Source: Desulfobacterales bacterium (GTDB lineage Bacteria; Desulfobacterota; Desulfobacteria; Desulfobacterales; JAHEIW01). From it: 52,980 nucleotides of DNA. The notes under the pieces were generated by a model. It was not told where the DNA came from and did not search any database. It worked only from the letters and a program-made list of their open reading frames with translations. Below are positions 3,110 through 51,467 of the stretch, in pieces; the stretch's first letter is position 1; every line of letters starts with the position of its first letter. The stretch lies in the NCBI GenBank assembly GCA_030601425.1, contig JAUVTR010000001.1, positions 1 through 52,980 on the forward strand. Reading direction: 5' to 3'. The position numbers and the translations under genes are program-made.

Positions 3110-4876
3110 ATGAAAAACAATAACAGCTTTCATATGGATGCCAAAAAACTCTTGGCCCGCATCGATTATTTGGAAGAAAATCGTAGGTTTATCCAAAATG
3201 TTTTGGAAACGGCGCTGTCATTGGGCGATTTTCAGGAAAATATCAATAAGGGCTATGGATCCGAGTATATTTTGCAGGAAGCTGATAAACGAATCAACCG
3301 TCTAATTCCTTTCGAAGCCAATGCGCATTACATTGTAGACCAGGAAAAATCGGATTTCTCATTATCCGTATGCAATAAAGGCCACCTGAAATCGTTCATC
3401 AAGAATGAAGTCAACCACATGATCGACCAAGGTTATTTTGCCTGGGCGATAAGAGAAAGGCGCGGGGTTTTGATATCATCCAGCGATCATAGCTGGCGCT
3501 TTGTATTACATGTGATCGCCACCTATTCACGCACCCGGGGCATGTTCATCGGCCTGCTGCCGGATAAAAACCATACAATCCCCGATACGTCGCTGACCCT
3601 GTTATCCATTATTTTGCTCAATACAGCCAATGCCCTGGAGAGTCTTGAATTTTATTCTTTGCTGCGCAACCAAAATGAGACCCTTGAAAAAAAGGTCGAA
3701 GAGCGAACCAAAGAATTGGCTAAATATGAACGCCAGCTGCAACAGGTTCTAAAAATTCAAGCGATCGGCACCCTGGCGGGCGGTATCGCGCATGACTTTA
3801 ACAATATTCTATTTCCCATCGTCGGGTATACTGAATTGACTATGGATGAAGTTTCCGAAGACAGTGTCGCACACAAAAATCTTGAAGAAATTCTCAAAGC
3901 CGCGCATCGTGCCAAGAATCTGGTTCAGCAAATTCTGACGTTCAGTCGTCAGAGCGATCAGGAGCGCAAGCCGATAAAGGTACAAAGTATCATAACAGAA
4001 ACTCTCAGGCTTCTGCGGGCATCGATTCCGGCCTCTATTGAGATCATTCATAAAATACAAGACGATTGCGGCCATATTATGGGCGATCCCACCCAGATCC
4101 ATCAGGTCATCATGAATTTATGCACCAATGCTTATCAAGCCATGCAGGATAAAGGCGGCAAGCTGGAAGTGATTCTGACCGAAATCGATGTCGGCTACGA
4201 AGAAATGATCGATAAAGTCGGAATGCAGCACGGCAAGCATCTGAGACTATTAGTTAAAGACGAAGGATGTGGTATGGAAGCCTCGGTGCTGGACAGGATT
4301 TTCGAGCCGTATTACACGACTAAAGAACAGGGCAAAGGCACGGGTTTGGGATTATCTGTCATCCACGGAATTGTTAAAAACCACGGGGGCGATATCACCG
4401 TTAAGAGCACGCCGGGTAAAGGAACGATATTTCAGGTTTACCTGCCGCTGATCGAAGATGTTGACCCCGATGTAGAATTCGAATCCACCGATGGCGCGAC
4501 AAAAGGAGAGGAACGAATTCTACTGGTTGATGACGAAGAGCAAATTGTGGCTATGGAACAACAGATGCTCGAAAATTTGGGCTACCGGGTCACCGCCAGG
4601 ACTGACAGCGCGGAAGCCCTCAAAGTGTTTGCTGAACACCCTCAGGATTTTGACCTTGTGATCACAGATATGACCATGCCGCACATGACCGGTGATCAGC
4701 TGGCTCAAAAAATGCTGGATATTGAACCCAATATTCCTGTCATTCTATGCACCGGTTTTAACCAGGGCATTACCGAAGAAAAGGCTCTGGCAATGGGTAT
4801 TCAAAAATTTGTAATGAAACCGGTCGTAAAAAAGGAATTAGCCACCACGATTCGCACCGTGTTGGATCAAAACTAG
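3110..4876 (+). CDS. Hybrid sensor histidine kinase / response regulator
   Basis: 588 aa. H-box GGIAHDFNNIL, N/G boxes (NLCTNAYQAM, DEGCGM, GTGLGLS) and a C-terminal receiver (LLVDDEE..DLVITDMTMPHMTG..KP). Starts 8 nt after the HDOD gene. Confidence 0.9.
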   Translation: MKNNNSFHMDAKKLLARIDYLEENRRFIQNVLETALSLGDFQENINKGYGSEYILQEADKRINRLIPFEANAHYIVDQEKSDFSLSVCNKGHLKSFIKNEVNHMIDQGYFAWAIRERRGVLISSSDHSWRFVLHVIATYSRTRGMFIGLLPDKNHTIPDTSLTLLSIILLNTANALESLEFYSLLRNQNETLEKKVEERTKELAKYERQLQQVLKIQAIGTLAGGIAHDFNNILFPIVGYTELTMDEVSEDSVAHKNLEEILKAAHRAKNLVQQILTFSRQSDQERKPIKVQSIITETLRLLRASIPASIEIIHKIQDDCGHIMGDPTQIHQVIMNLCTNAYQAMQDKGGKLEVILTEIDVGYEEMIDKVGMQHGKHLRLLVKDEGCGMEASVLDRIFEPYYTTKEQGKGTGLGLSVIHGIVKNHGGDITVKSTPGKGTIFQVYLPLIEDVDPDVEFESTDGATKGEERILLVDDEEQIVAMEQQMLENLGYRVTARTDSAEALKVFAEHPQDFDLVITDMTMPHMTGDQLAQKMLDIEPNIPVILCTGFNQGITEEKALAMGIQKFVMKPVVKKELATTIRTVLDQN

Positions 4877-4954
4877 CGGTTTTGCGACAGCATACCTCTA
4901 ATTTGTAAACGATCTTTGGAGCTCACCGTTCGCCTCACAAATACAGATGCTCGG

Positions 4955-5003
4955 TCCTGGGTTCTGGCATCTGGCTGCTGGTCTCTGGCTGCTTGTTCCC
5001 CGT
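4955..5003. repeat. In-phase heptad tract, NNCTGGC dialect
   Basis: tcctggg ttctggc atctggc tgctggt ctctggc tgcttgt tccccgt: 7 consecutive heptads upstream of the 83-aa ORF. Confidence 0.75.
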
Positions 5004-8841: not shown

Positions 8842-8871
8842 AATTTCTTTACTGTCACAAAACCATTTAGT

Positions 8872-9046
8872 AGGTTTCAGGTTTCGGGTGTCAGGCGTCA
8901 GGTAAACAGACGACAGAGGTCAGAGGACAGAGGACAGAAAACAGAAGATACAGTTGTCAGAATTGACAGTGCTGAAACCTGAACACTGAAACCTGACACC
9001 TGAAACCTCCTTATTCCTGACACCTGACACCCGAAACCTAAAACCT
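8872..9046. repeat. Long heptad-periodic hairpin element A (GGTTTCA/GGTGTCA plus GACAGAG dialects)
   Basis: 8875-8951 holds 11 in-phase heptads ending in CAG(G). 8970-9046 holds about 11 heptads of the complementary CTGA type. The outer arms 8872-8902 and 9016-9046 pair at 29 of 31 positions. Confidence 0.9.
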
Positions 9047-9266
9047 AATTTTTGCTGAAACCTGAAGCCATAATAAAGGCATATTAAACTTTCGTTCCGG
9101 CAAGCGTTTCGGAGACGAGCAAAACCGCTATCAGGCGAGAGATGATGGTATTAAAAGACGGTCTATTGAGTATAACCACATCTCCATTATTTGCAATAAA
9201 AAACACCTTGTGCATTTGATCAATTTTAGGTTGTCCAATCTGCGGTTATACGGTATAGGGCCGTCA

Positions 9267-10985: not shown

Positions 10986-11150
10986 TGTCAGGGTTCAGAG
11001 TTCAGAGGACAGAAGTCAGAGGTCAGAAAACAGAGGTCAGATGACAGAAGACAGATGGTAAGAACTGTAGGATGGAGCACCTTTTCTGACGTCTGTATCT
11101 TCTGTTTTCTGACATCTGTACTCTGTCCTCTGACACCTGACACCTAAAAC
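10985..11150. repeat. Heptad-periodic hairpin element B (GTCAGAG/GACAGAA dialect)
   Basis: Ten exact-phase heptads at 10987-11056. The reverse-complement arm is 11086-11150, about 80% complementary with one heptad indel. The loop is 11057-11085. It starts on the last base of the recJ stop codon. Confidence 0.9.
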
Positions 11151-11297
11151 GCTGGCACCTGTTTCCTGAAATTGCTGTCATCCAGCAAAAAACTTTAGGT
11201 ATATGTCGGGCGAATATTTTGCTTGCAAACAGGCGTGTTACCCATTATGATGCCACCACAATTCCGGTACTAATCATTTCAACCAGAAGGTGAAACC

Positions 11298-17910: not shown

Positions 17911-18131
17911 AAATCACTCGTTTCAAAATTGAATTTAGCTTGAAAAATTAAAGTTTAAATAAAGATCAATCATTTGTGAGGGCAAATGGGCAAGACTTCT
18001 ATTTATACCATAAATGAGATTTTTTTTCGATGCTCGATTTTCTGCTAAAAGACGAAGGCGCATAAACGGATTAAAAGCTAGCATGCGAGCATTTTAAGAA
18101 GCCCATAACGAAACTATTGCGCATTAGATAA

Positions 18132-18209
18132 CGAGAACGAGGACGACGACGAGTACGAAGCGAGAAGGAACGTTGTCTAACCTCGTATTCGTCGTCGTCC
18201 TCGTCCTCG
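18132..18209. repeat. Hairpin element D (GAGGACGAC dialect)
   Basis: 18132-18160 pairs with 18181-18209 at 26 of 29 positions, with a 20-nt loop. Lies 25 nt downstream of the guaB stop. Confidence 0.85.
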
Positions 18210-18233
18210 AGAATGGCATTTTTGAGATGGGTT

Positions 18234-20588: not shown

Positions 20589-22433
20589 TTAGTCGTCGTT
20601 TAATTTCTCTTGCAAGTTCTCGCGCAAAATTTCGCCAAAAGAGGATGTAGCGGGCCTTATATTATTCGCATAGTCGCTGAGCAGGTTTTGTTCATCCTCA
20701 ATTTCGAGTCGTTTGATTGAAAGACCAATGCGCCTTTCTTCAGTGTTGATGTTCATGACTCTGGAAGTAATGACATCGCCCACCTTAAATTTTTCCGTCG
20801 GTGATTTTATTTTATCTTTGCTGATCTCAGAGATATGTACAAGGCCTTCAATCCCTTCTTCCAGCTCAACAAAGACTCCGAAATCCGTCAGGTTGGTGAT
20901 GGTTCCGGTTATTTCTTTGCCAACTTCGTACCGTTCGGACACCGACTGCCATGGATCATTCTGTAACTGCTTGATGCCCAGGGAAAACCGCTCGTTGTTT
21001 TTTTCAATATCTAACACGATAGCCTGGACAACATCGCCTTTTTTATACAGCTCAGAGGGGTGTTTAATCCGTTTTGTCCAGGAAATATCGGAAATATGAA
21101 CCAGCCCGTCAATGCCCTCATCAATACCGATAAACAACCCAAAATCCGTAATGTTTTTTATTTTCCCTTCAATGGTGGTACCGATCGGGTATTTTCCGCT
21201 GATCACATCCCATGGGTTCGGAACAACCTGTTTCATCCCCAGAGAAATCCGACGGCTTTCGGGTTTTATATCCAGCACAACAGCTTCCACCTCATCTCCG
21301 ACAGACACCACCTTGGATGGATGCCGAATTTTGCGTGTCCAAGACATTTCGGACACGTGGATGAGTCCCTCGATGCCCTCTTCAAGCTCTATAAATGCAC
21401 CGTAATCCGTCAGGCTGACGACCTTGCCCGTCACACGGGAACCAACGGCGTATTTTTCAGCAGCCGTGGTCCACGGATCTTCGGCAAGCTGTTTCATTCC
21501 CAATGAGACTCTTTCGTTTTCCAAGTCCAAATTTAAGATTTTAACGGTAATATCATCGCCGATTGAAAAAAGCTCTGAGGGATGCTTCACCCGTCCCCAT
21601 GATATATCGGTAATGTGAAGCAGTCCGTCAACACCGCCGAGATCCACAAATACGCCATACTCGGTTATGTTTTTAACGGCGCCTTCAACAACCTTGCCTT
21701 CTTCGATATTGGCCAGGGTGGCGGTACGTTTTTCGTCGAGTTCTTTCTCTAAAATGGCCCGCCGGGAAAGAACAATATTACTGCGTTTACGGTTGTATTT
21801 TAGAATCTTGAAATCAAATTCTTTGCCGACCATTTCATCAAGATTTCGAATCGGTCGCAAATCCGCCTGGGAGCCGGGTAAAAACGCCGGAACGCCGATG
21901 TCCACTGAAAATCCACCCTTGACCCGGTTGGTAATCGTTCCTTTGACGGTACCTTCTTCATCATAGGACGTCTTAATCGATTCCCAGATTTTTATATTGG
22001 CGGCTTTATCCTTGGATAACAGGACGCGCTCCTCTTCATCGTCCCACCATTCAACCATAACCTCGATGGCATCTCCCACTTTGGCCGTGATATTGCCGTT
22101 TTCATCTAAAAATTCTTGCATCCGTACTTGGCCTTCAGATTTGTATCCGATGTCAATCAGAACGTGATCTTTATCTATCGAAATAATCCTGCCGGTGACC
22201 ACTTCTCCCTCGGCAAAGCGCTTAAAACTTTCTTCATACATGTCCATTACGCTTTCCATGCTGTCACCCGCATCTTTTGGAATATCTTCGGATGAGCCAT
22301 CCGGTGATTCCTGGGCTTTGACTTCTTCCTTTTGCGGTTTACTTTCGGTTTTCAATTGCTCAGCAGCCATGTCATCAGTAATTTCAGTTTGCTCTTCATT
22401 TTGAGTTTCATCCTTGTTTGTTTCATCAACCAT
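20589..22433 (-). CDS. rpsA: 30S ribosomal protein S1
   Basis: 614 aa. Six S1 repeats (G.V..I...G.FV.L..G..GL.H.SE). An acidic, low-complexity extension of about 75 aa sits at the N-terminus. Confidence 0.95.
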   Translation of the reverse strand: MVDETNKDETQNEEQTEITDDMAAEQLKTESKPQKEEVKAQESPDGSSEDIPKDAGDSMESVMDMYEESFKRFAEGEVVTGRIISIDKDHVLIDIGYKSEGQVRMQEFLDENGNITAKVGDAIEVMVEWWDDEEERVLLSKDKAANIKIWESIKTSYDEEGTVKGTITNRVKGGFSVDIGVPAFLPGSQADLRPIRNLDEMVGKEFDFKILKYNRKRSNIVLSRRAILEKELDEKRTATLANIEEGKVVEGAVKNITEYGVFVDLGGVDGLLHITDISWGRVKHPSELFSIGDDITVKILNLDLENERVSLGMKQLAEDPWTTAAEKYAVGSRVTGKVVSLTDYGAFIELEEGIEGLIHVSEMSWTRKIRHPSKVVSVGDEVEAVVLDIKPESRRISLGMKQVVPNPWDVISGKYPIGTTIEGKIKNITDFGLFIGIDEGIDGLVHISDISWTKRIKHPSELYKKGDVVQAIVLDIEKNNERFSLGIKQLQNDPWQSVSERYEVGKEITGTITNLTDFGVFVELEEGIEGLVHISEISKDKIKSPTEKFKVGDVITSRVMNINTEERRIGLSIKRLEIEDEQNLLSDYANNIRPATSSFGEILRENLQEKLNDD

Positions 22434-22600
22434 GAATAATTAGTCCCCCTTAGCCTATTTTATTGCAGCCAGATAGAGCCCTGGCGCAACCTCCTATCTT
22501 TAACAGAATGGCGAAAAAATGCAATCCTTTATTTAATTTTTGGTAAAATCCGTGGATCAGAACTATTGAGATTAGGAATAGCAACTATTCTCCAATTTAT

Positions 22601-23266
22601 TTATAGCTTTTTTTCGATGTACGACAGCATTAAATCAACCACCTTCTCAACAGATAAACCGGTGGAATCAATCCGAATCGCGTCATCAGCCGGTTTTAGA
22701 GGCGCCAGGCTCCGCGTGCTGTCATTTGTGTCGCGCTTTTTCATATCCTGCGCAACCTCTTCCAGAGACTGGCTTGATTTAGATTCGAGCTCTTGATACC
22801 TACGCAGGGCTCGGGTTTTTGATGATGCATCCAAAAAAAATTTAACATCAGCCTCGGGGAAGACGATGGTTCCCATATCGCGTCCTTCAAAAACCGCCGC
22901 TTTCTTTTGGCCAATATCTCTTTGCACTTCAAGCAAATAATCCCTCACAATCGATTTAGCCGAAACTGCCGATGCCAGCATGCTAATTTCCGGAGTGCGT
23001 ATAGGGTCTGAAATGTCGACCCCATCTGAATAGAGCCGCAACCCCGTCCCTTTCGATTCAAAACCAAGCTGAATTAGATGACAAAGTTTCTGCAACTTGG
23101 CTTCATTTTCCGGGTTGATTCCGCGACGTTTAACCTCATAAGCCACCCCGCGATAAAGGGCGCCGGTATTGATATAACGGTATCCCAGCCGGTCGGCGAG
23201 CGCCCGGCTCACGGTTGTTTTTCCGGCCCCGGCAGGCCCATCAATGGTGATCAATAGTTTCTTCAT
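22601..23266 (-). CDS. cmk: Cytidylate kinase
   Basis: 221 aa. ITIDGPAGAGKTT P-loop and typical CMP-binding region. Confidence 0.93.
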   Translation of the reverse strand: MKKLLITIDGPAGAGKTTVSRALADRLGYRYINTGALYRGVAYEVKRRGINPENEAKLQKLCHLIQLGFESKGTGLRLYSDGVDISDPIRTPEISMLASAVSAKSIVRDYLLEVQRDIGQKKAAVFEGRDMGTIVFPEADVKFFLDASSKTRALRRYQELESKSSQSLEEVAQDMKKRDTNDSTRSLAPLKPADDAIRIDSTGLSVEKVVDLMLSYIEKKL

Positions 23267-23270
23267 AGTC

Positions 23271-23417
23271 CTGGTGTCAGGTGTCAGGTGTCAGGTTTCA
23301 GGCCACTGGCTACTAGTTACTGCTACCCGTCACTGGTTTCCGGCAGCCGCAGAGGGCTGCCCTTCTCCGGTTTTCATCTATCTTCTGACTTCTGACTTCT
23401 GTCTTCTGATTTCTGAT
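23271..23417. repeat. Element E: the whole cmk-hisC spacer as 21 in-phase heptads
   Basis: ctggtgt caggtgt caggtgt caggttt caggcca ctggcta ctagtta ctgctac ccgtcac ... ttctgac ttctgac ttctgtc ttctgat ttctgat. The left GGTGTCA arm is 23273-23302 and the right TTCTGAC arm is 23381-23416. A central GGCAGCC/GGCTGCC hairpin lies at 23342-23361. Confidence 0.9.
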
Positions 23418-23420
23418 CGC

Positions 23421-24512
23421 TTAAATTACCTGTTCAAACGCTTCTAAAAAACGAATATTTTCCTCATGTTTTCCAATATTTACCCGGATATATTCCGAAT
23501 ATCCGTAAGATGTCAATGAGCGTACGATCACCCCTTGTTTAAGAAGATTTTCGAAAACCTCATCCGCGGTTCTCCCATCTCCAACCTTGACCATAAAAAA
23601 ATTGGCCTGGGATCGAATATAAGGCATCTCCAGCTTTTCCAGAACGCCATATATAAATTCGAGCTCGTTGTGAACCAGATCGACAGTCTTTTGCAGGAAT
23701 TCAGTATCGTTAAGCGCAGCGGACGCTGCCACCTGGGCAAGTGTATTGACATTAAACGGTTGTCTGACCCTGTGAAGGAGTTCGGCCAAAGCCGACGGCA
23801 TCACGCCGTAGCCCACACGCAGTCCCGCTAAACCGAAAGCTTTGGAGAACGTGCGTATCCCCACAATGGCTTTATCGGTTCTCAAAAATTCAAAACTGTT
23901 AGCGCAATTCGATTCTCTGACAAATTCGATATAGGCTTCATCCAACACAATGACGATTTGGGGCGGAATCTCTGCGATAAATTCTTCAAAATCATGTCTT
24001 GATATAATAGTTCCGGTCGGATTGTGGGGAACATTTATAAAGATCATGCGGGTTTTCGGGCTTATTTTCCGTAACATGCCTGCCAGATTCGTTTCAAACG
24101 ATTTTAGGGGAACCCAGACCGGAATAGCACCGGAGGTAAGAATCGAAATTTCATAAAATAGAAAGGACGGTTGCGGTAAAATAACCTCGTCATCAGGTCT
24201 CAACAAAACCCGCGCCAGCAAAGCGATGATATCGTCGGATCCGTTTCCTAAAACAATATTTTCCGGAGCAATGTTATTCTTTTCAGCAATAGATTGAATC
24301 AGTTCGTAGCCACCGGCGTCCGGATACCGATGCAGTTTTGCTATTGCCCGGCGGATGGCTCCAACAGCCATCGGTGACGGTCCCAATGGGTTTTCATTGG
24401 ACGCCAGCTTAATGGGATTATCGATCCCATATTCCCGCTGAACTTCCTCGACAGGCTTCCCGGGAACATAGGGTTTAATCTTTGAGAAATAATCCGGGAT
24501 TTTCAGTTTCAT
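23421..24512 (-). CDS. hisC: Histidinol-phosphate aminotransferase
   Basis: 363 aa class-II aminotransferase. LASNENPLGPSP, NPNNPTG-like PHNPTG and RTFSKAFGLAGLRVGY (PLP lysine). Confidence 0.9.
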   Translation of the reverse strand: MKLKIPDYFSKIKPYVPGKPVEEVQREYGIDNPIKLASNENPLGPSPMAVGAIRRAIAKLHRYPDAGGYELIQSIAEKNNIAPENIVLGNGSDDIIALLARVLLRPDDEVILPQPSFLFYEISILTSGAIPVWVPLKSFETNLAGMLRKISPKTRMIFINVPHNPTGTIISRHDFEEFIAEIPPQIVIVLDEAYIEFVRESNCANSFEFLRTDKAIVGIRTFSKAFGLAGLRVGYGVMPSALAELLHRVRQPFNVNTLAQVAASAALNDTEFLQKTVDLVHNELEFIYGVLEKLEMPYIRSQANFFMVKVGDGRTADEVFENLLKQGVIVRSLTSYGYSEYIRVNIGKHEENIRFLEAFEQVI

Positions 24513-24576
24513 TTTAGGTATAAAGCGTTAATATTACAAGTTAATACATTTTTGAGATTAAAAATATAATTTAAAA

Positions 24577-24662
24577 AATTACCACGAAATCACGAAAACA
24601 TAAAAGCACGAAATATTCTTTCTTTTTCGTGTTTTCGTCATTTCGCGCTTTCGTGGTAAATT
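24577..24662. repeat. Hairpin element F (CACGAAA dialect)
   Basis: aattaccacgaaatcacgaaaacataaaagcacgaaa (24577-24613) versus tttcgtgttttcgtcatttcgcgctttcgtggtaaatt (24625-24662). About 30 of 38 positions are complementary, with an 11-nt loop. Confidence 0.88.
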
Positions 24663-24714
24663 ACTTTTCGATTTATTAAGTATAGATTCGGGTACAGAAA
24701 TTATTCGATCTTTG

Positions 24715-25254
24715 TTAAGTTGCCATTGCGGCTTTTTGGCCCTCTTCCAGTGCCTTCATGTTAAGCGGGATCAGTTTTTCTTTACTGGCAAATTTGACTT
24801 TTACCGATTCACGCAACCGCTCAAAGTCGACCACCTGGCTGCGACTGACGAATGCCGCCAGTGCCACGATATTGGCAGCTTTAACATTTCCCAATTCCTT
24901 GGCAATTTCGATAATCGGAACTTTAAGAACGTCCACATCGTCCCGACCGGCATCAATCGAAATGATGGAACTATTGATAAAGATGATGCCGCCGGATTTT
25001 ACAGCCGGTGCGAATTTTTCAAGAGAAGGGCGATTCATCGCTACCAGATGTTTCGGATTCCGAATAATCGGAGAACCGATAGGCCGGTCGCTGATCACCA
25101 CCGTACAATAAGCCGTACCCCCTCTCATTTCCGGCCCGTATGACGGAATCCAAACGACTTCATAGCCTTGATCCATGGCAGCCTGAGCCATAATCTGACC
25201 CATTAGCATAATTCCCTGGCCGCCGAATCCGGCGAATTGAATTTCGTTTTGCAT
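24715..25254 (-). CDS. 2-oxoacid:ferredoxin oxidoreductase, gamma subunit
   Basis: 179 aa. The GFGGQGI motif is typical of POR/KOR/VOR gamma subunits. Substrate specificity is not resolvable from sequence. Confidence 0.85.
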   Translation of the reverse strand: MQNEIQFAGFGGQGIMLMGQIMAQAAMDQGYEVVWIPSYGPEMRGGTAYCTVVISDRPIGSPIIRNPKHLVAMNRPSLEKFAPAVKSGGIIFINSSIISIDAGRDDVDVLKVPIIEIAKELGNVKAANIVALAAFVSRSQVVDFERLRESVKVKFASKEKLIPLNMKALEEGQKAAMAT

Positions 25255-25285: not shown

Positions 25286-25432
25286 TTGGAGCGAAGCAGA
25301 AATCCCGGTTTATCGGGGAATTGAAAATTGAAGATTTCAAATTGAATATTTATGGATGTCGCTTCGCTCCGTCCTTTTTAAAATGGAAAGAATTCCTTAA
25401 ATATTCAATATTCAATCGAAAATATTCAATCG
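25286..25432. repeat. Hairpin element G (ATTCAAT dialect) with the conserved core
   Basis: Arms are 25318-25355 and 25395-25432, and the core is 25356-25394 (gtcgcttcgctccgtcctttttaaaatggaaagaattcc). An extra upstream ggagcgaagc (25288-25297) is exactly complementary to 25361-25370. Confidence 0.85.
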
Positions 25433-26238: not shown

Positions 26239-26257
26239 TTATTTTCTCCTATATTTG

Positions 26258-26366
26258 GTCGATTTGTTGAATGGTTAACTGGTTAATTAGTTTGATGAAA
26301 AAAGCACTGACGGTTAAACCTAATAACTATTCAACCCATCGACTATTTGACTATTTAACTATTTTG
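26258..26366. repeat. Hairpin element H (GTTAACT/CTATTTA dialect)
   Basis: 26258-26290 pairs with 26320-26343 at 21 of 24 positions with a 9-nt bulge. It is followed by ctatttga ctatttaa ctatttt, which overlaps the stop of the alpha-subunit gene. Confidence 0.75.
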
Positions 26367-27421
26367 CGAACTTCTTCCATGACCTCTTCGGGAGTGGGAA
26401 CTTCACCGCCACATTTGCCGTACCAATGCACCGGGCGCCGGCCGGAAACACTGCGTTCAACATCTTCCACCATCTGTCCCATGGACATTTCCACGCACAG
26501 CACAGCCCGGCAGCTTTGCCTGTCAACCGCAGCGTAGATGGCAGTCTTTGGAAACGGAAATACGGTCTGGGGTCTGATCATACCCACTTCAAATCCCTGC
26601 TCTTTGAGATTATCAATGGCAGTTCGACATACCCGGCTCATGGTGCCGTAGCTGACGATAAGCACGCGATAGTCCCCATCGACATTGTAGGCTTCATAGC
26701 GCACCTCTTCCCGTTCCATCTGCTCATACTTGGCTTTTAACATCAGATTGTGAGAATTGAGTTCCTCGGGATCCAGATAGAGCGTTTTAACCAGGTTGCG
26801 CCGCTTGCGATTGCGCGTCGCCATGCCGTTGGTGGCCCAATCATCTTTGTTGGTGGGTTCGGCTTTAAGCGAATCCGGGAATTCCACCGGTTCCATCATC
26901 TGACCGATAAGCCCGTCTCCCAGGATCATTACCGGATTGCGGTATTTCTCGGCCAGAGCAAATGCGCCCATCATCATCTCAACGGCTTCCTGAACACTGG
27001 CCGGTGCCATGACCAGCAGTTTATAGTCTCCGTGCCCGCCCCCTTTTACCGATTGCATATAGTCGGCCTGAGAAGGAAGGATACCACCCAATCCCGGCCC
27101 GCCGCGCATGATGTTGACAAACACCGCCGGGCACTGGGCCGCGGTGATATAGCTGATGCCTTCACTCATCAAACTGATGCCGGGGCTGGAAGAGGTTGTA
27201 AACACCCGCTCCCCGCAGGCAGCGGCGCCAAAGATCATATATGATACGGCCACTTCGCTTTCACCCTGCAAAAACACACCGCCTGCTTCCGGTAATCGGC
27301 GGGAGAGATATTCAGCAACTTCAGATTGAGGCGTGATTGGATAGGCAAAATAATTCAAACAGCCTGCCCGAATAGCGGCCTCTCCAATGGCTTCATTGCC
27401 TTTCATCAATACTTTCCCCAT
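26351..27421 (-). CDS. 2-oxoacid:ferredoxin oxidoreductase, alpha subunit
   Basis: 356 aa. KGNEAIGEAAIRAGC..YPITPQSE is the N-terminus typical of KorA/VorB-type subunits. Confidence 0.9.
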   Translation of the reverse strand: MGKVLMKGNEAIGEAAIRAGCLNYFAYPITPQSEVAEYLSRRLPEAGGVFLQGESEVAVSYMIFGAAACGERVFTTSSSPGISLMSEGISYITAAQCPAVFVNIMRGGPGLGGILPSQADYMQSVKGGGHGDYKLLVMAPASVQEAVEMMMGAFALAEKYRNPVMILGDGLIGQMMEPVEFPDSLKAEPTNKDDWATNGMATRNRKRRNLVKTLYLDPEELNSHNLMLKAKYEQMEREEVRYEAYNVDGDYRVLIVSYGTMSRVCRTAIDNLKEQGFEVGMIRPQTVFPFPKTAIYAAVDRQSCRAVLCVEMSMGQMVEDVERSVSGRRPVHWYGKCGGEVPTPEEVMEEVRKIVK

Positions 27422-28820: not shown

Positions 28821-29112
28821 AGTGCCTACAAAAAAAAGTGAGCTAAAATTCAAAATGATCTAAAATGCCTAAAATTAATGAATTCTGCCCGTCGAGAGCC
28901 TCTGGGTCGAACGACTGAGTCGAACGATCCATTTTATTTAAAAAGATGGAGCATGGCGACTCCATAACCCTGGCCCAGACCCTGATTACAGATTTAAGGG
29001 GTTACTCGAAATCCTCCACGTTAACTGAAGTAATCGCATGATAGTATTTTATAGCGCGAGGGCGGGCTTTAGGCACTTTAGATCATTTTAGGCATTTTAG
29101 GCATTTCAGGCA
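28821..29112. repeat. Element J (GCCTAAAAT dialect) enclosing a 191-nt interior with the inverted conserved core
   Basis: 28853-28875 (aaaatgatctaaaatgcctaaaa) pairs with 29067-29089 (ctttaggcactttagatcatttt) at 21 of 23 positions. The interior 28881-28961 carries the reverse complement of the C/G core, with a 38-nt insertion. Confidence 0.8.
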
Positions 29113-29146
29113 ATACATGGGGTTATAAACACCCTTCAGAATAGGA

Positions 29147-30328: not shown

Positions 30329-30460
30329 CCAGAGGTCAGATTACAGAGGACAGAGGACAGCAGTCAGATGACAGAGAACATGCGTTAGAAAATGGTGCCA
30401 GCATTCAGTCTACTGTCTTCTGTTATCTGTTTTCTGACTTCTGACATCTGACATCTGACA
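30329..30460. repeat. Heptad-periodic hairpin element K (GTCAGAG/GACAGAG dialect)
   Basis: The left arm 30329-30380 starts on the base after the namZ stop. The right arm 30408-30460 is about 70-75% complementary in heptad register. Confidence 0.85.
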
Positions 30461-30478
30461 AAGTGGGGAGAAACACAA

Positions 30479-41154: not shown

Positions 41155-41256
41155 AATCCCTCCTCTTTGCTTAATACGCGTTGCTCGATGCGGGTTACTC
41201 GATTACTTTATTGATTGTCGTTCCTGAGGATTATCGAGCCCCGGAACCCATAGGTA

Positions 41257-41350
41257 TAGTTAAATGGTCAATTAGTTGATTCGTTAAATAGTTTAAAATG
41301 GATTGAATCCTTTGACTAATTGACAATTCGACGAATTAACTAATTGACTA
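41257..41350. repeat. Hairpin element M (GTCAATTAG/TTAACGA dialect)
   Basis: Centred on ggattgaatcc (41301-41311). 41275-41324 is the reverse complement of 51346-51396, about 90% identical over roughly 50 nt. Confidence 0.88.
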
Positions 41351-43571: not shown

Positions 43572-43664
43572 ATTTATAATCCACAGATTACGCAGAAATA
43601 AATATTCAATAATTTCTTTATAATTTTTTAAATCTGTGTAAATCTGCGAAATCTGCGGATAAAT
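43572..43664. repeat. Hairpin element O (CGCAGAT dialect)
   Basis: atttataatccacagattacgcagaaat (43572-43599) versus aatctgtgtaaatctgcgaaatctgcggataaat (43631-43664), with an AT-rich 31-nt loop. Confidence 0.8.
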
Positions 43665-49350: not shown

Positions 49351-49510
49351 TGAGCTAAAGCTGAAAAGCGGAAATAATTCATTTTATTTGATACTCACGC
49401 AAAGCCGCTAAGCTCGCAAAGAATAATGATTTAAACAATTAAAAAACTCTTGGCGTCTTTGCGCCTTTGCGTGAGGCCTAAAGTATTCGTTCATTTTAGG
49501 CACTTTTTTT
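49351..49510. repeat. Nested element P: outer GCCTAAAAT-type arms, inner CGCAAAG hairpin
   Basis: The inner 49394-49422 pairs with 49447-49475 at about 24 of 29 positions. The outer right arm gttcattttaggcact (49489-49504) is the exact reverse complement of 14254-14269. A T-run at 49504-49510 follows. Confidence 0.85.
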
Positions 49511-50970: not shown

Positions 50971-50984
50971 CTCTGGTTTCAGAG

Positions 50985-51013
50985 TCCGCAGATTTCGCAG
51001 ATTTCCGCAGATA
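50985..51013. repeat. Solo CGCAGAT arm
   Basis: In tccgcagatttcgcagatttccgcagata, the first 20 nt are identical to the reverse complement of 43641-43660 in element O. It starts 15 nt after the gap stop. Confidence 0.85.
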
Positions 51014-51302: not shown

Positions 51303-51339
51303 GATATGCCGATAAGATGTTGGCACCTGGTTAAATGTT

Positions 51340-51467
51340 CAAATAGTCAATTAGTCAGAGGATTCAATCCGTTTTAAAACTATTTAACGATTCGACGATT
51401 TAACCAATTAACTTATCATTTTACTAATTGACTATTCGATTAATTGACCATTTAACGAATTAACGAT
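51340..51467. repeat. Hairpin element N (GTCAATTAG/TTAACGA dialect), the partner copy of M
   Basis: Centred on ggattcaatcc (51360-51370). It equals the reverse complement of element M with an internal insertion of about 44 nt. It ends 27 nt before the tpiA ATG. Confidence 0.88.

Follow-up and report, generated by a model that had tools for sequence, protein, structure and literature searches.

The spacer between hisC and cmk in the stretch of Desulfobacterales DNA analysed here (52,980 nt, referred to as the window) is very probably one copy of a lineage-wide family of intergenic foldback elements carried by a group of uncultured Desulfobacterales. Elements of this family consist of two opposed tandem arrays of short units around a non-repeat core, and their units are mostly 7 nt long and frequently have CAG/CTG as core. 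Across 345 kb of the clade, 120 arrays have a period of 7 nt, and periods of 6, 8 and 9 nt are found in 30, 25 and 15 arrays, respectively. CAG or CTG occurs in 64 of the 120 heptad consensus units, whereas approximately 20% would be expected by chance according to our own estimate. The host belongs to an uncultured lineage whose closest species representatives share 89% cmk identity. A sequence-only reading of the same DNA had treated the spacer as a singular object; it is actually a weakly pairing copy of a large family, in which the majority of the copies folded give much stronger predicted hairpins (z between -4 and -10).

Layout and periodicity of the hisC-cmk spacer

The spacer lies between two co-directional genes, and its earlier reported length of 154 nt is borne out by the gene ends. 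Its parts and neighbours are as follows.

23421..24512, - strand: hisC, histidinol-phosphate transaminase, upstream gene (TIGR01141, 337.9 bits)
23267..23420, - strand: hisC-cmk intercistronic spacer, the foldback element, 154 nt (from gene ends and sequence)
23376..23417, - strand: hisC-side arm (5' arm in the mRNA), six heptads (TRF and autocorrelation)
23342..23361, no strand assigned: non-repeat core, perfect 7-bp stem GGCAGCC/GGCTGCC with a 6-nt loop (inverted-repeat match)
23271..23340, - strand: cmk-side arm (3' arm in the mRNA) (TRF and autocorrelation)
23269..23272, - strand: AGGA, the sole Shine-Dalgarno-like motif for cmk (read from sequence)
22601..23266, - strand: cmk, (d)CMP kinase, downstream gene (TIGR00017, 237.6 bits)
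20589-22433, - strand: rpsA, beyond cmk (NCBIfam equivalog model)

The hisC stop codon occupies 23421-23423 and the cmk start is at 23266 on the - strand. Flanks of 4 nt had been described on either side of the repeat tract; this holds on the cmk side, but the hisC side has 3 nt. The opposed arrays are ~70 nt apart. The hisC-side arm is built of GUCAGAA-type units on the mRNA strand (CTTCTGA on the + strand), for which TRF reports period 7, 5.0 copies and 89%. The cmk-side arm begins with four clean heptads at 23273-23302, ACACCUG on the mRNA strand and GGTGTCA on the + strand (TRF: period 7, 4.3 copies, 95%), and continues inward as about five decayed NNNNCAG-type heptads reaching ~23340. The stretch homologous to these decayed heptads in the relative L006 consists of clear NNNCCAG heptads. 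Written as NNCCTGA, the cmk-side arm has three to four units and ends at most 11 nt before the cmk ATG.

Over the 147 nt of the heptad parse, the period-7 autocorrelation is 0.63, compared with 0.27 +/- 0.04 in dinucleotide shuffles, and none of 2000 shuffles was as high. Only 7 stands out among periods 3 to 12. The value is 0.82 for units 1-5 and 0.61 for units 5-9, both significant, and 0.83 for units 16-21 (equalled by 0 of 2000 shuffles). Units 9-15 reach 0.38, which was matched by 121 of 2000 shuffles, and are not clearly periodic. The sequence-only reading had divided 23271 to 23417 into 21 heptads in a single phase, of which 12 of the first 14 begin with C. The parse and the count are both correct as written, although any sequence divides into heptads; the arms (units 1-8 and 16-21) are periodic as claimed, but units 9-15 are not clearly so. 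That the two arms are in phase follows solely from the 21-nt length of the non-repeat core, for which the odds are one in seven. Two indels, of 2 nt and 1 nt, put the homologous centre of L006 out of phase, so the phase continuity put forward as a property of the element is not conserved.

The perfect 7-bp central hairpin (23342-23348 paired with 23355-23361 across a 6-nt loop) had been described correctly. It occurs once in the window and, among 80 relative loci, in L006 only, and is thus locus-specific; the idea that it might be a dispersed module was rejected on the same grounds.

A search of the whole window against Rfam gave no match at the gathering score, and around the spacer the matches were at chance level only (E >= 0.69). 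Terminator scanning of the - strand from 22400 to 24800 found no site of the type with a GC-rich stem and U tract, and the promoter and terminator scans found nothing within the spacer on the mRNA strand. A 67-aa + strand open reading frame at 23244-23447 was taken as a chance product, as it is antisense to both gene ends and built of heptads. The AGGA motif is separated from the cmk ATG by 2 nt, an unusually short spacing, and other spacer alleles have no consistent Shine-Dalgarno motif before cmk. Of the neighbouring genes, hisC has no recognisable Shine-Dalgarno sequence (ACCTAAA before the ATG; 24513-24530) and rpsA has GGGGGA. A second public record (L081, run SRR19020584) has the same hisC and an identical spacer over its 147 nt; its contig stops within the last heptads of the spacer.

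Sister elements in the window

The window is otherwise an ordinary housekeeping region (recJ, dnaE, guaB, tsaC, vorABC, namZ, rnhA, plsB). It contains about 13 further candidate foldbacks, again opposed tandem arrays with units of 6-9 nt, and the elements take up about a third of its intergenic regions. The heptad copies have a common layout, an NNNNCAG-type array, a non-repeat centre and a CTGNNNN-type array. Eight of the other elements were folded, of which six gave z between -3 and -10 on both strands, the exceptions being 25305-25430 and 4940-5003.

4940-5003: weak heptad run, folding no better than shuffles
8871..9066, no strand assigned: nested-dialect heptad foldback, outer GGTKTCA and inner RNCAGAG (z -7.3 on one strand and -9.8 on the other)
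10986..11161, no strand assigned: heptad foldback directly past the recJ stop codon (z -6.4)
18127..18210, - strand: hexamer foldback GACGAG / CTCGTC in the dnaE-guaB gap (z -7.7, -9.1)
24573..24660, - strand: octamer foldback CACGAAAW / WTTTCGTG in the vorC-hisC spacer (z -5.5, -7.2)
25316-25418: foldback of another unit with the layout of the heptad copies (folded as 25305-25430, z only about -2)
26260-26367, within 26250-26370: foldback of hexamer/octamer type (folded)
28852-29117: candidate foldback, spotted by eye only
30329..30461, no strand assigned: heptad foldback filling the namZ-rnhA spacer (z -4.6)
41250-41350: candidate foldback, spotted by eye only
43580-43660: candidate foldback, spotted by eye only
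49395-49475: candidate foldback, spotted by eye only
51330-51465: candidate foldback, spotted by eye only

The octamer hairpin at 24573-24660 has 76% column identity across 12 lineages, unlike the hypervariable heptad spacers. A covariation analysis of this hairpin (12 sequences, 26 predicted pairs) found no compensatory changes, an uninformative outcome. Every one-sided change in it keeps G-U or A-U pairing on the mRNA strand. Hexamer units of the GACGAG type, as in the dnaE-guaB gap, are also found within the hisC-cmk spacers of L034 and L075.

Three of the four divergent promoter regions of the window carry candidate foldbacks, of which only 8871-9066 was folded; the elements are therefore not confined to intercistronic RNA. 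No transposase was found among the 25 window proteins scanned (scan up to 37.4 kb).

Several candidates share details of sequence. Those at 41250-41350 and 51330-51465 are octamer-type foldbacks of the TTGACTAA / TTAGTCAA dialect with a common palindromic centre, GGATTSAATCC, and this octamer subfamily, unlike the heptad copies, may have a conserved core. The candidate at 28852-29117 consists of 9-mer arrays (TTTAGGCAT / ATGCCTAAA) around ~190 nt that contain the hairpin ATGGAGCATGGCGACTCCAT. A near-identical hairpin, GGAGTCGCTATGCTCCA, stands beside the same 9-mers in the hisC-cmk spacers of L054 and L055. Arrays of another 9-mer, AAATCTGCG / CGCAGATTT, are found at 43580-43660 and 50979-51006, the first being an inverted pair in a divergent promoter region. 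A rule that the purine-rich arm always comes first (17 vs 4) was dropped, given the non-independence of the copies and the exceptions formed by the inner hexamer hairpins in L001, L008 and L039.

Probable origin of the spacer at gene junctions

The hisC-cmk junction was compared at the 80 relative loci. Fifteen distant relatives, at 57-69% cmk identity, have overlapping genes, the 4-nt ATGA comprising both the end of hisC and the beginning of cmk. Closer relatives have spacers of 69-575 nt, consisting largely of nested opposed arrays in several dialects: GGTTCAG/CTGAACC, GTCAGAG/CTCTGAC, GGTGTCA/TGACACC, GACGAG/CTCGTC, GGTTTGATT-type 9-mers, CGGAATG/CATTCCG and others. The vorC-hisC junction provides a parallel, with an ATGA or 1-nt overlap at one end of the range and 97-289 nt of arrays at the other. 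From this comparison the ancestral state of the hisC/cmk junction was most likely the 4-nt ATGA overlap. Empty ATGA sites (L013, L014, L016, L022, L065, L067) are scattered among filled ones on the cmk tree, which indicates repeated gain or precise loss. The element would have arisen at the hisC/cmk junction and then changed by unit slippage, deletions, nested additions and recombination.

The same comparison may explain why the two arms of the window allele differ. The spacer of L043 contains the complete nested order of outer array (GGTGTCA), inner array (GACAGAN), loop, inner' and outer'. Read along the mRNA, the window allele combines an inner-type 5' arm with an outer'-type 3' arm, separated by the locus-specific core and the decayed NNNCCAG heptads, both of which it shares with L006. 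We read the window allele as a deletion and recombination derivative whose arms (GUCAGAA and ACACCUG) are non-cognate, which would account for both the two dialects and the weak pairing.

Turnover between near-identical strains

Four spacer alleles, unrelated to each other or mosaic, are found in strains whose coding flanks are 99.4-100% identical; beside an identical cmk protein they measure 134, 154, 167 and 213 nt. Over 6.5 kb of coding sequence the window and L001 share 99.4-99.9% identity, yet the spacers on either side of hisC have been replaced by unrelated ones. Within cmk, the alleles differ at six sites, all synonymous and all at the third positions of consecutive codons 3-8 (23243-23266), and the remaining ~640 nt are identical. 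This clustering marks where a recombination tract ended, shortly within cmk. Among the alleles, 3' ends of hisC and 5' ends of cmk occur in mosaic combinations, which likewise points to recombination that ended slightly within the coding sequences. Direct evidence of slippage comes from L001 and L002, between which the difference is exactly one CTCGTC hexamer unit. An assembly artefact was rejected as the source of these differences: four independent assemblies agree exactly on the 167-nt allele, and L081 agrees with the window on its allele.

The strains with the 167-nt allele (L001, L002, L005) also differ in rpsA, where ~156-162 nt of the 5' part are tandemly duplicated (L001 about 3851-4168 vs window 22255-22416). 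The S1 protein called in these strains has 666 aa, compared with a 614-aa open reading frame in the window.

Strand and folding of the spacer

The sequence-only reading had predicted that each heptad would form GUCAG/CUGAC plus a G-U pair and a regularly spaced U-U mismatch. The arms are indeed in different dialects and the GUCAG/CUGAC blocks can pair, but the full pattern applies to RNA of the + strand only. As hisC, cmk and rpsA all lie on the - strand, the helix with G-U pairs and U-U mismatches belongs to the antisense strand; on the mRNA strand, each heptad would form 5 pairs with A·C and A·A mismatches. For the arm-arm duplex, the calculated energies are -19.0 kcal/mol in the mRNA and -26.3 kcal/mol for the + strand, compared with -59 for four cognate units. 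The whole spacer folds only slightly better than its shuffles (mRNA strand, z about -1.8 to -2.1; + strand, -2.4 to -2.8), and the minimum-energy structure of the window allele leaves the first 24 nt unpaired. The L001 allele has a strong predicted fold (z -7.2 to -7.5).

Across 40 distinct spacers, no RNA strand bias was found: the sense strand had the lower z in 18 of 40 and the lower energy in 24 of 40. An origin at the DNA level or a neutral one therefore fits as well as an RNA role. In 27 of the 40 the predicted stem starts 0-1 nt past the stop codon, and it ends at a median of ~7 nt before the ATG, positions that are to be read with the caveat that the sequences were cut exactly at the spacer ends, which favours pairing of the ends.

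Proposed mechanism

Our preferred reading is that the element is a member of the foldback family and acts at the RNA level as a folded-back structured spacer in the hisC-cmk(-rpsA) mRNA. We would put the two parts jointly just short of an even chance, and the RNA-level action is tentative and somewhat further below it. In typical copies, a stem would reach from 0-1 nt past the upstream stop codon to a few nt before the next start. Because the stem begins at the stop codon, a terminating ribosome would have to open the stem base. Given that cmk has no consistent Shine-Dalgarno sequence, we propose that melting of the stem base by this ribosome would unmask the pyrimidine-rich NNCUGAN run before the Shine-Dalgarno-poor start codon. 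The long imperfect duplex could also be a plausible target for a double-strand RNase, by analogy to the H. influenzae hmw hairpin described below. Any such effect should be weak in the window allele. The weak fold of that allele (z about -2), the absence of a sense-strand bias in folding, the lack of compensatory changes in the octamer hairpin and the candidates in divergent promoters either argue against an RNA role or do not decide for it.

Comparison with known repeat systems

The closest match among known systems is with the class 3 "predicted global regulator binding sites" of Geobacter metallireducens, which have approximately five tandem MTYCTGA heptads per site (Aklujkar et al., 2009, PMC2700814, Fig. 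S5). These sites are multicopy, form opposite-strand pairs at variable distance, and lie between co-directional housekeeping genes such as moaA-mosC, cbiG-cobQ and proB-proA; binding of IHF/HU to them was put forward in the source paper as no more than a hypothesis (PMC2700814). The window arm at 23382-23416 matches three MTYCTGA units with 1-2 mismatches, where no match is expected by chance, and the cmk-side arm (CACCTGA, - strand) keeps only the YCTGA of this consensus. The pairing of class 3 sites is also found here, as opposed intergenic arrays in the spacer and in three more heptad pairs of the window. Octamer and nonamer classes with the paired layout occur in G. metallireducens and here alike. 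The two systems differ in host lineage, Geobacter rather than Desulfobacterales, and in density: the 53 kb here contain roughly 14 candidate foldbacks, compared with only 8 class 3 pairs reported for a whole genome. Nested arrays, mixed dialects and replacement between strains are seen here and are undescribed for Geobacter class 3.

Cyanobacterial STRR heptamers have the consensus units CCCCAGT, TTGGTCA and CAACAGT. They are hairpin-capable and occur between co-transcribed genes, e.g. hupS-hupL, where transcript stabilisation or translational coupling has been proposed as their role (PMC2670836). The spacer resembles them in having tandem, hairpin-capable heptamers between genes. It differs from them in its units (GTCAGAA and GGTGTCA) and in its host, a Desulfobacterales MAG lineage rather than a cyanobacterium; STRR are mostly described as direct arrays, whereas the arrays here are opposed.

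In the 5' UTR of H. influenzae hmw1A, one arm of a long, imperfectly paired RNA hairpin is a pyrimidine-rich (ATCTTTC)n heptad array with a number of copies that differs from cell to cell, and cleavage of this hairpin by RNase III has been shown experimentally (PMC12721329). For the spacer here, a hairpin with heptad arms is predicted weakly in the window allele and strongly in L001. The hmw hairpin is however a single locus upstream of a phase-variable adhesin gene, not an intercistronic genome-wide family, and its second arm is a non-repeat G-rich stretch.

TAACTGA direct repeats abound in the intergenic regions of Beggiatoaceae, cyanobacteria and Bacteroidetes, and they often stop a few nt short of a start codon without Shine-Dalgarno sequence; sets have 2-6 copies each, and 1 of 170 is inverted (MacGregor 2015, PMC4679880). 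The arrays here likewise have CTGA-core heptads, with the cmk-side arm near the start codon. They are inverted pairs whereas TAACTGA repeats are direct, and the TAACTGA dimer TAACTGATAACTGA had no match here at up to 2 mismatches.

Mobile elements offer two further points of comparison. Drosophila FB transposons, which are eukaryotic, have long inverted arms made up of short tandem repeats, and both the length of the arms and the loops vary. REP, BIME and REPIN elements are bacterial multicopy intergenic hairpins in housekeeping operons, and REP elements have a conserved ~35 nt palindrome and a cognate RAYT transposase. The copies here have loops and cores that are unrelated to each other, and the 25 scanned window proteins include no transposase-like protein.

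Alternative explanations

The first alternative is that the elements are neutral or selfish by-products without function, which we consider unlikely but take seriously. Slippage in one arm of a small palindrome would be copied across to the other by hairpin-templated strand switching, and the opposed arrays would stay wherever their harm is slight. Extreme turnover among near-identical strains is what such a process would produce, as are the one-unit difference between L001 and L002 and the many unrelated unit sequences and periods. The absence of strand bias in folding and of covariation also fits, and two records retain the window allele although most of its pairing is gone. Such a process does not readily explain why a few of the same dialects return at unrelated loci, why the arrays take up nearly the whole distance between the stop codon and the next start, why the octamer hairpin has kept its 76% column identity over 12 lineages, or why the MTYCTGA consensus is found again in Geobacter.

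The arrays might alternatively be DNA binding sites, with converging rows of CTGA heptads bound cooperatively by a nucleoid-type protein or a global regulator. This explanation, by analogy to Geobacter, is improbable in our view. It would make sense of the CAG/CTG core that recurs at 7-nt spacing in both arms despite their lost pairing, of the excess of CAG or CTG among heptad units (64 of 120 against ~20% by our estimate) and of the fit of one arm to MTYCTGA, and it agrees with the elements in divergent promoter regions, the lack of RNA strand bias and the IHF/HU binding proposed by Aklujkar et al. (PMC2700814). No binding protein is known in any lineage, unrelated units of 6, 8 and 9 nt share the architecture, and complete replacement from strain to strain would be unexpected if the arrays regulated housekeeping genes.

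A non-autonomous mobile element of the foldback/MITE type, with the arrays as terminal repeats and insertion at the gene junction, is about equally doubtful. Presence on the cmk tree is patchy, with empty ATGA sites nested among filled ones; the same module types recur at different loci and in different genomes, and modules are nested inside modules. A ~10-nt direct repeat, GGTKYTATGA, surrounds the insert in L030, L041 and L042, which is suggestive only. A register-fixed test for flanking duplications gave a weak result (4.4 of 12 identities compared with 3.1 in controls, none reaching 8). Loops and termini vary between copies, the core hairpin is locus-specific, and none of the 25 scanned window proteins (up to 37.4 kb) is a transposase.

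The original view of a single 21-heptad tract in one phase, forming a regular helix with periodic G-U/U-U defects, is very improbable and is largely refuted by the strand assignment and the L006 indels: its parse and its 5-bp GUCAG/CUGAC blocks are real, but the centre is not periodic, the phase is broken in L006, the G-U/U-U pattern is on the antisense strand and the fold has z of about -2.

Implications for operons and assemblies

To our knowledge, the apparent replacement of gene overlaps, the nesting of dialects and the wholesale replacement of spacers between near-identical strains are new. The elements appear to have replaced tight gene overlaps in the core operons of vorABC-hisC-cmk-rpsA. 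The hisC/cmk junction provides a natural series, from ATGA overlap through weak to strong predicted hairpins, that bears on operon expression.

CTGA-core heptad arrays in the Desulfobacterales group, in Geobacter (MTYCTGA) and in Beggiatoaceae, cyanobacteria and Bacteroidetes (TAACTGA) may be the footprint of one unrecognised sequence-specific system across lineages, an idea that we regard as speculative and rather unlikely. If true, a single system, which could be a protein or a ribonuclease, would act on the transcribed arrays and drive their expansion, and in the lineage studied here it would have turned gene junctions with overlap and translational coupling into tunable hairpin spacers specific to each strain.

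Since the spacers differ completely between strains with near-identical genes, they can serve as sensitive strain markers. Contigs in metagenome assemblies also probably break at the arrays, which are likely to fragment short-read assemblies of this lineage. Short-read contigs of L081, L012, L036 and L038 end or begin within arrays.
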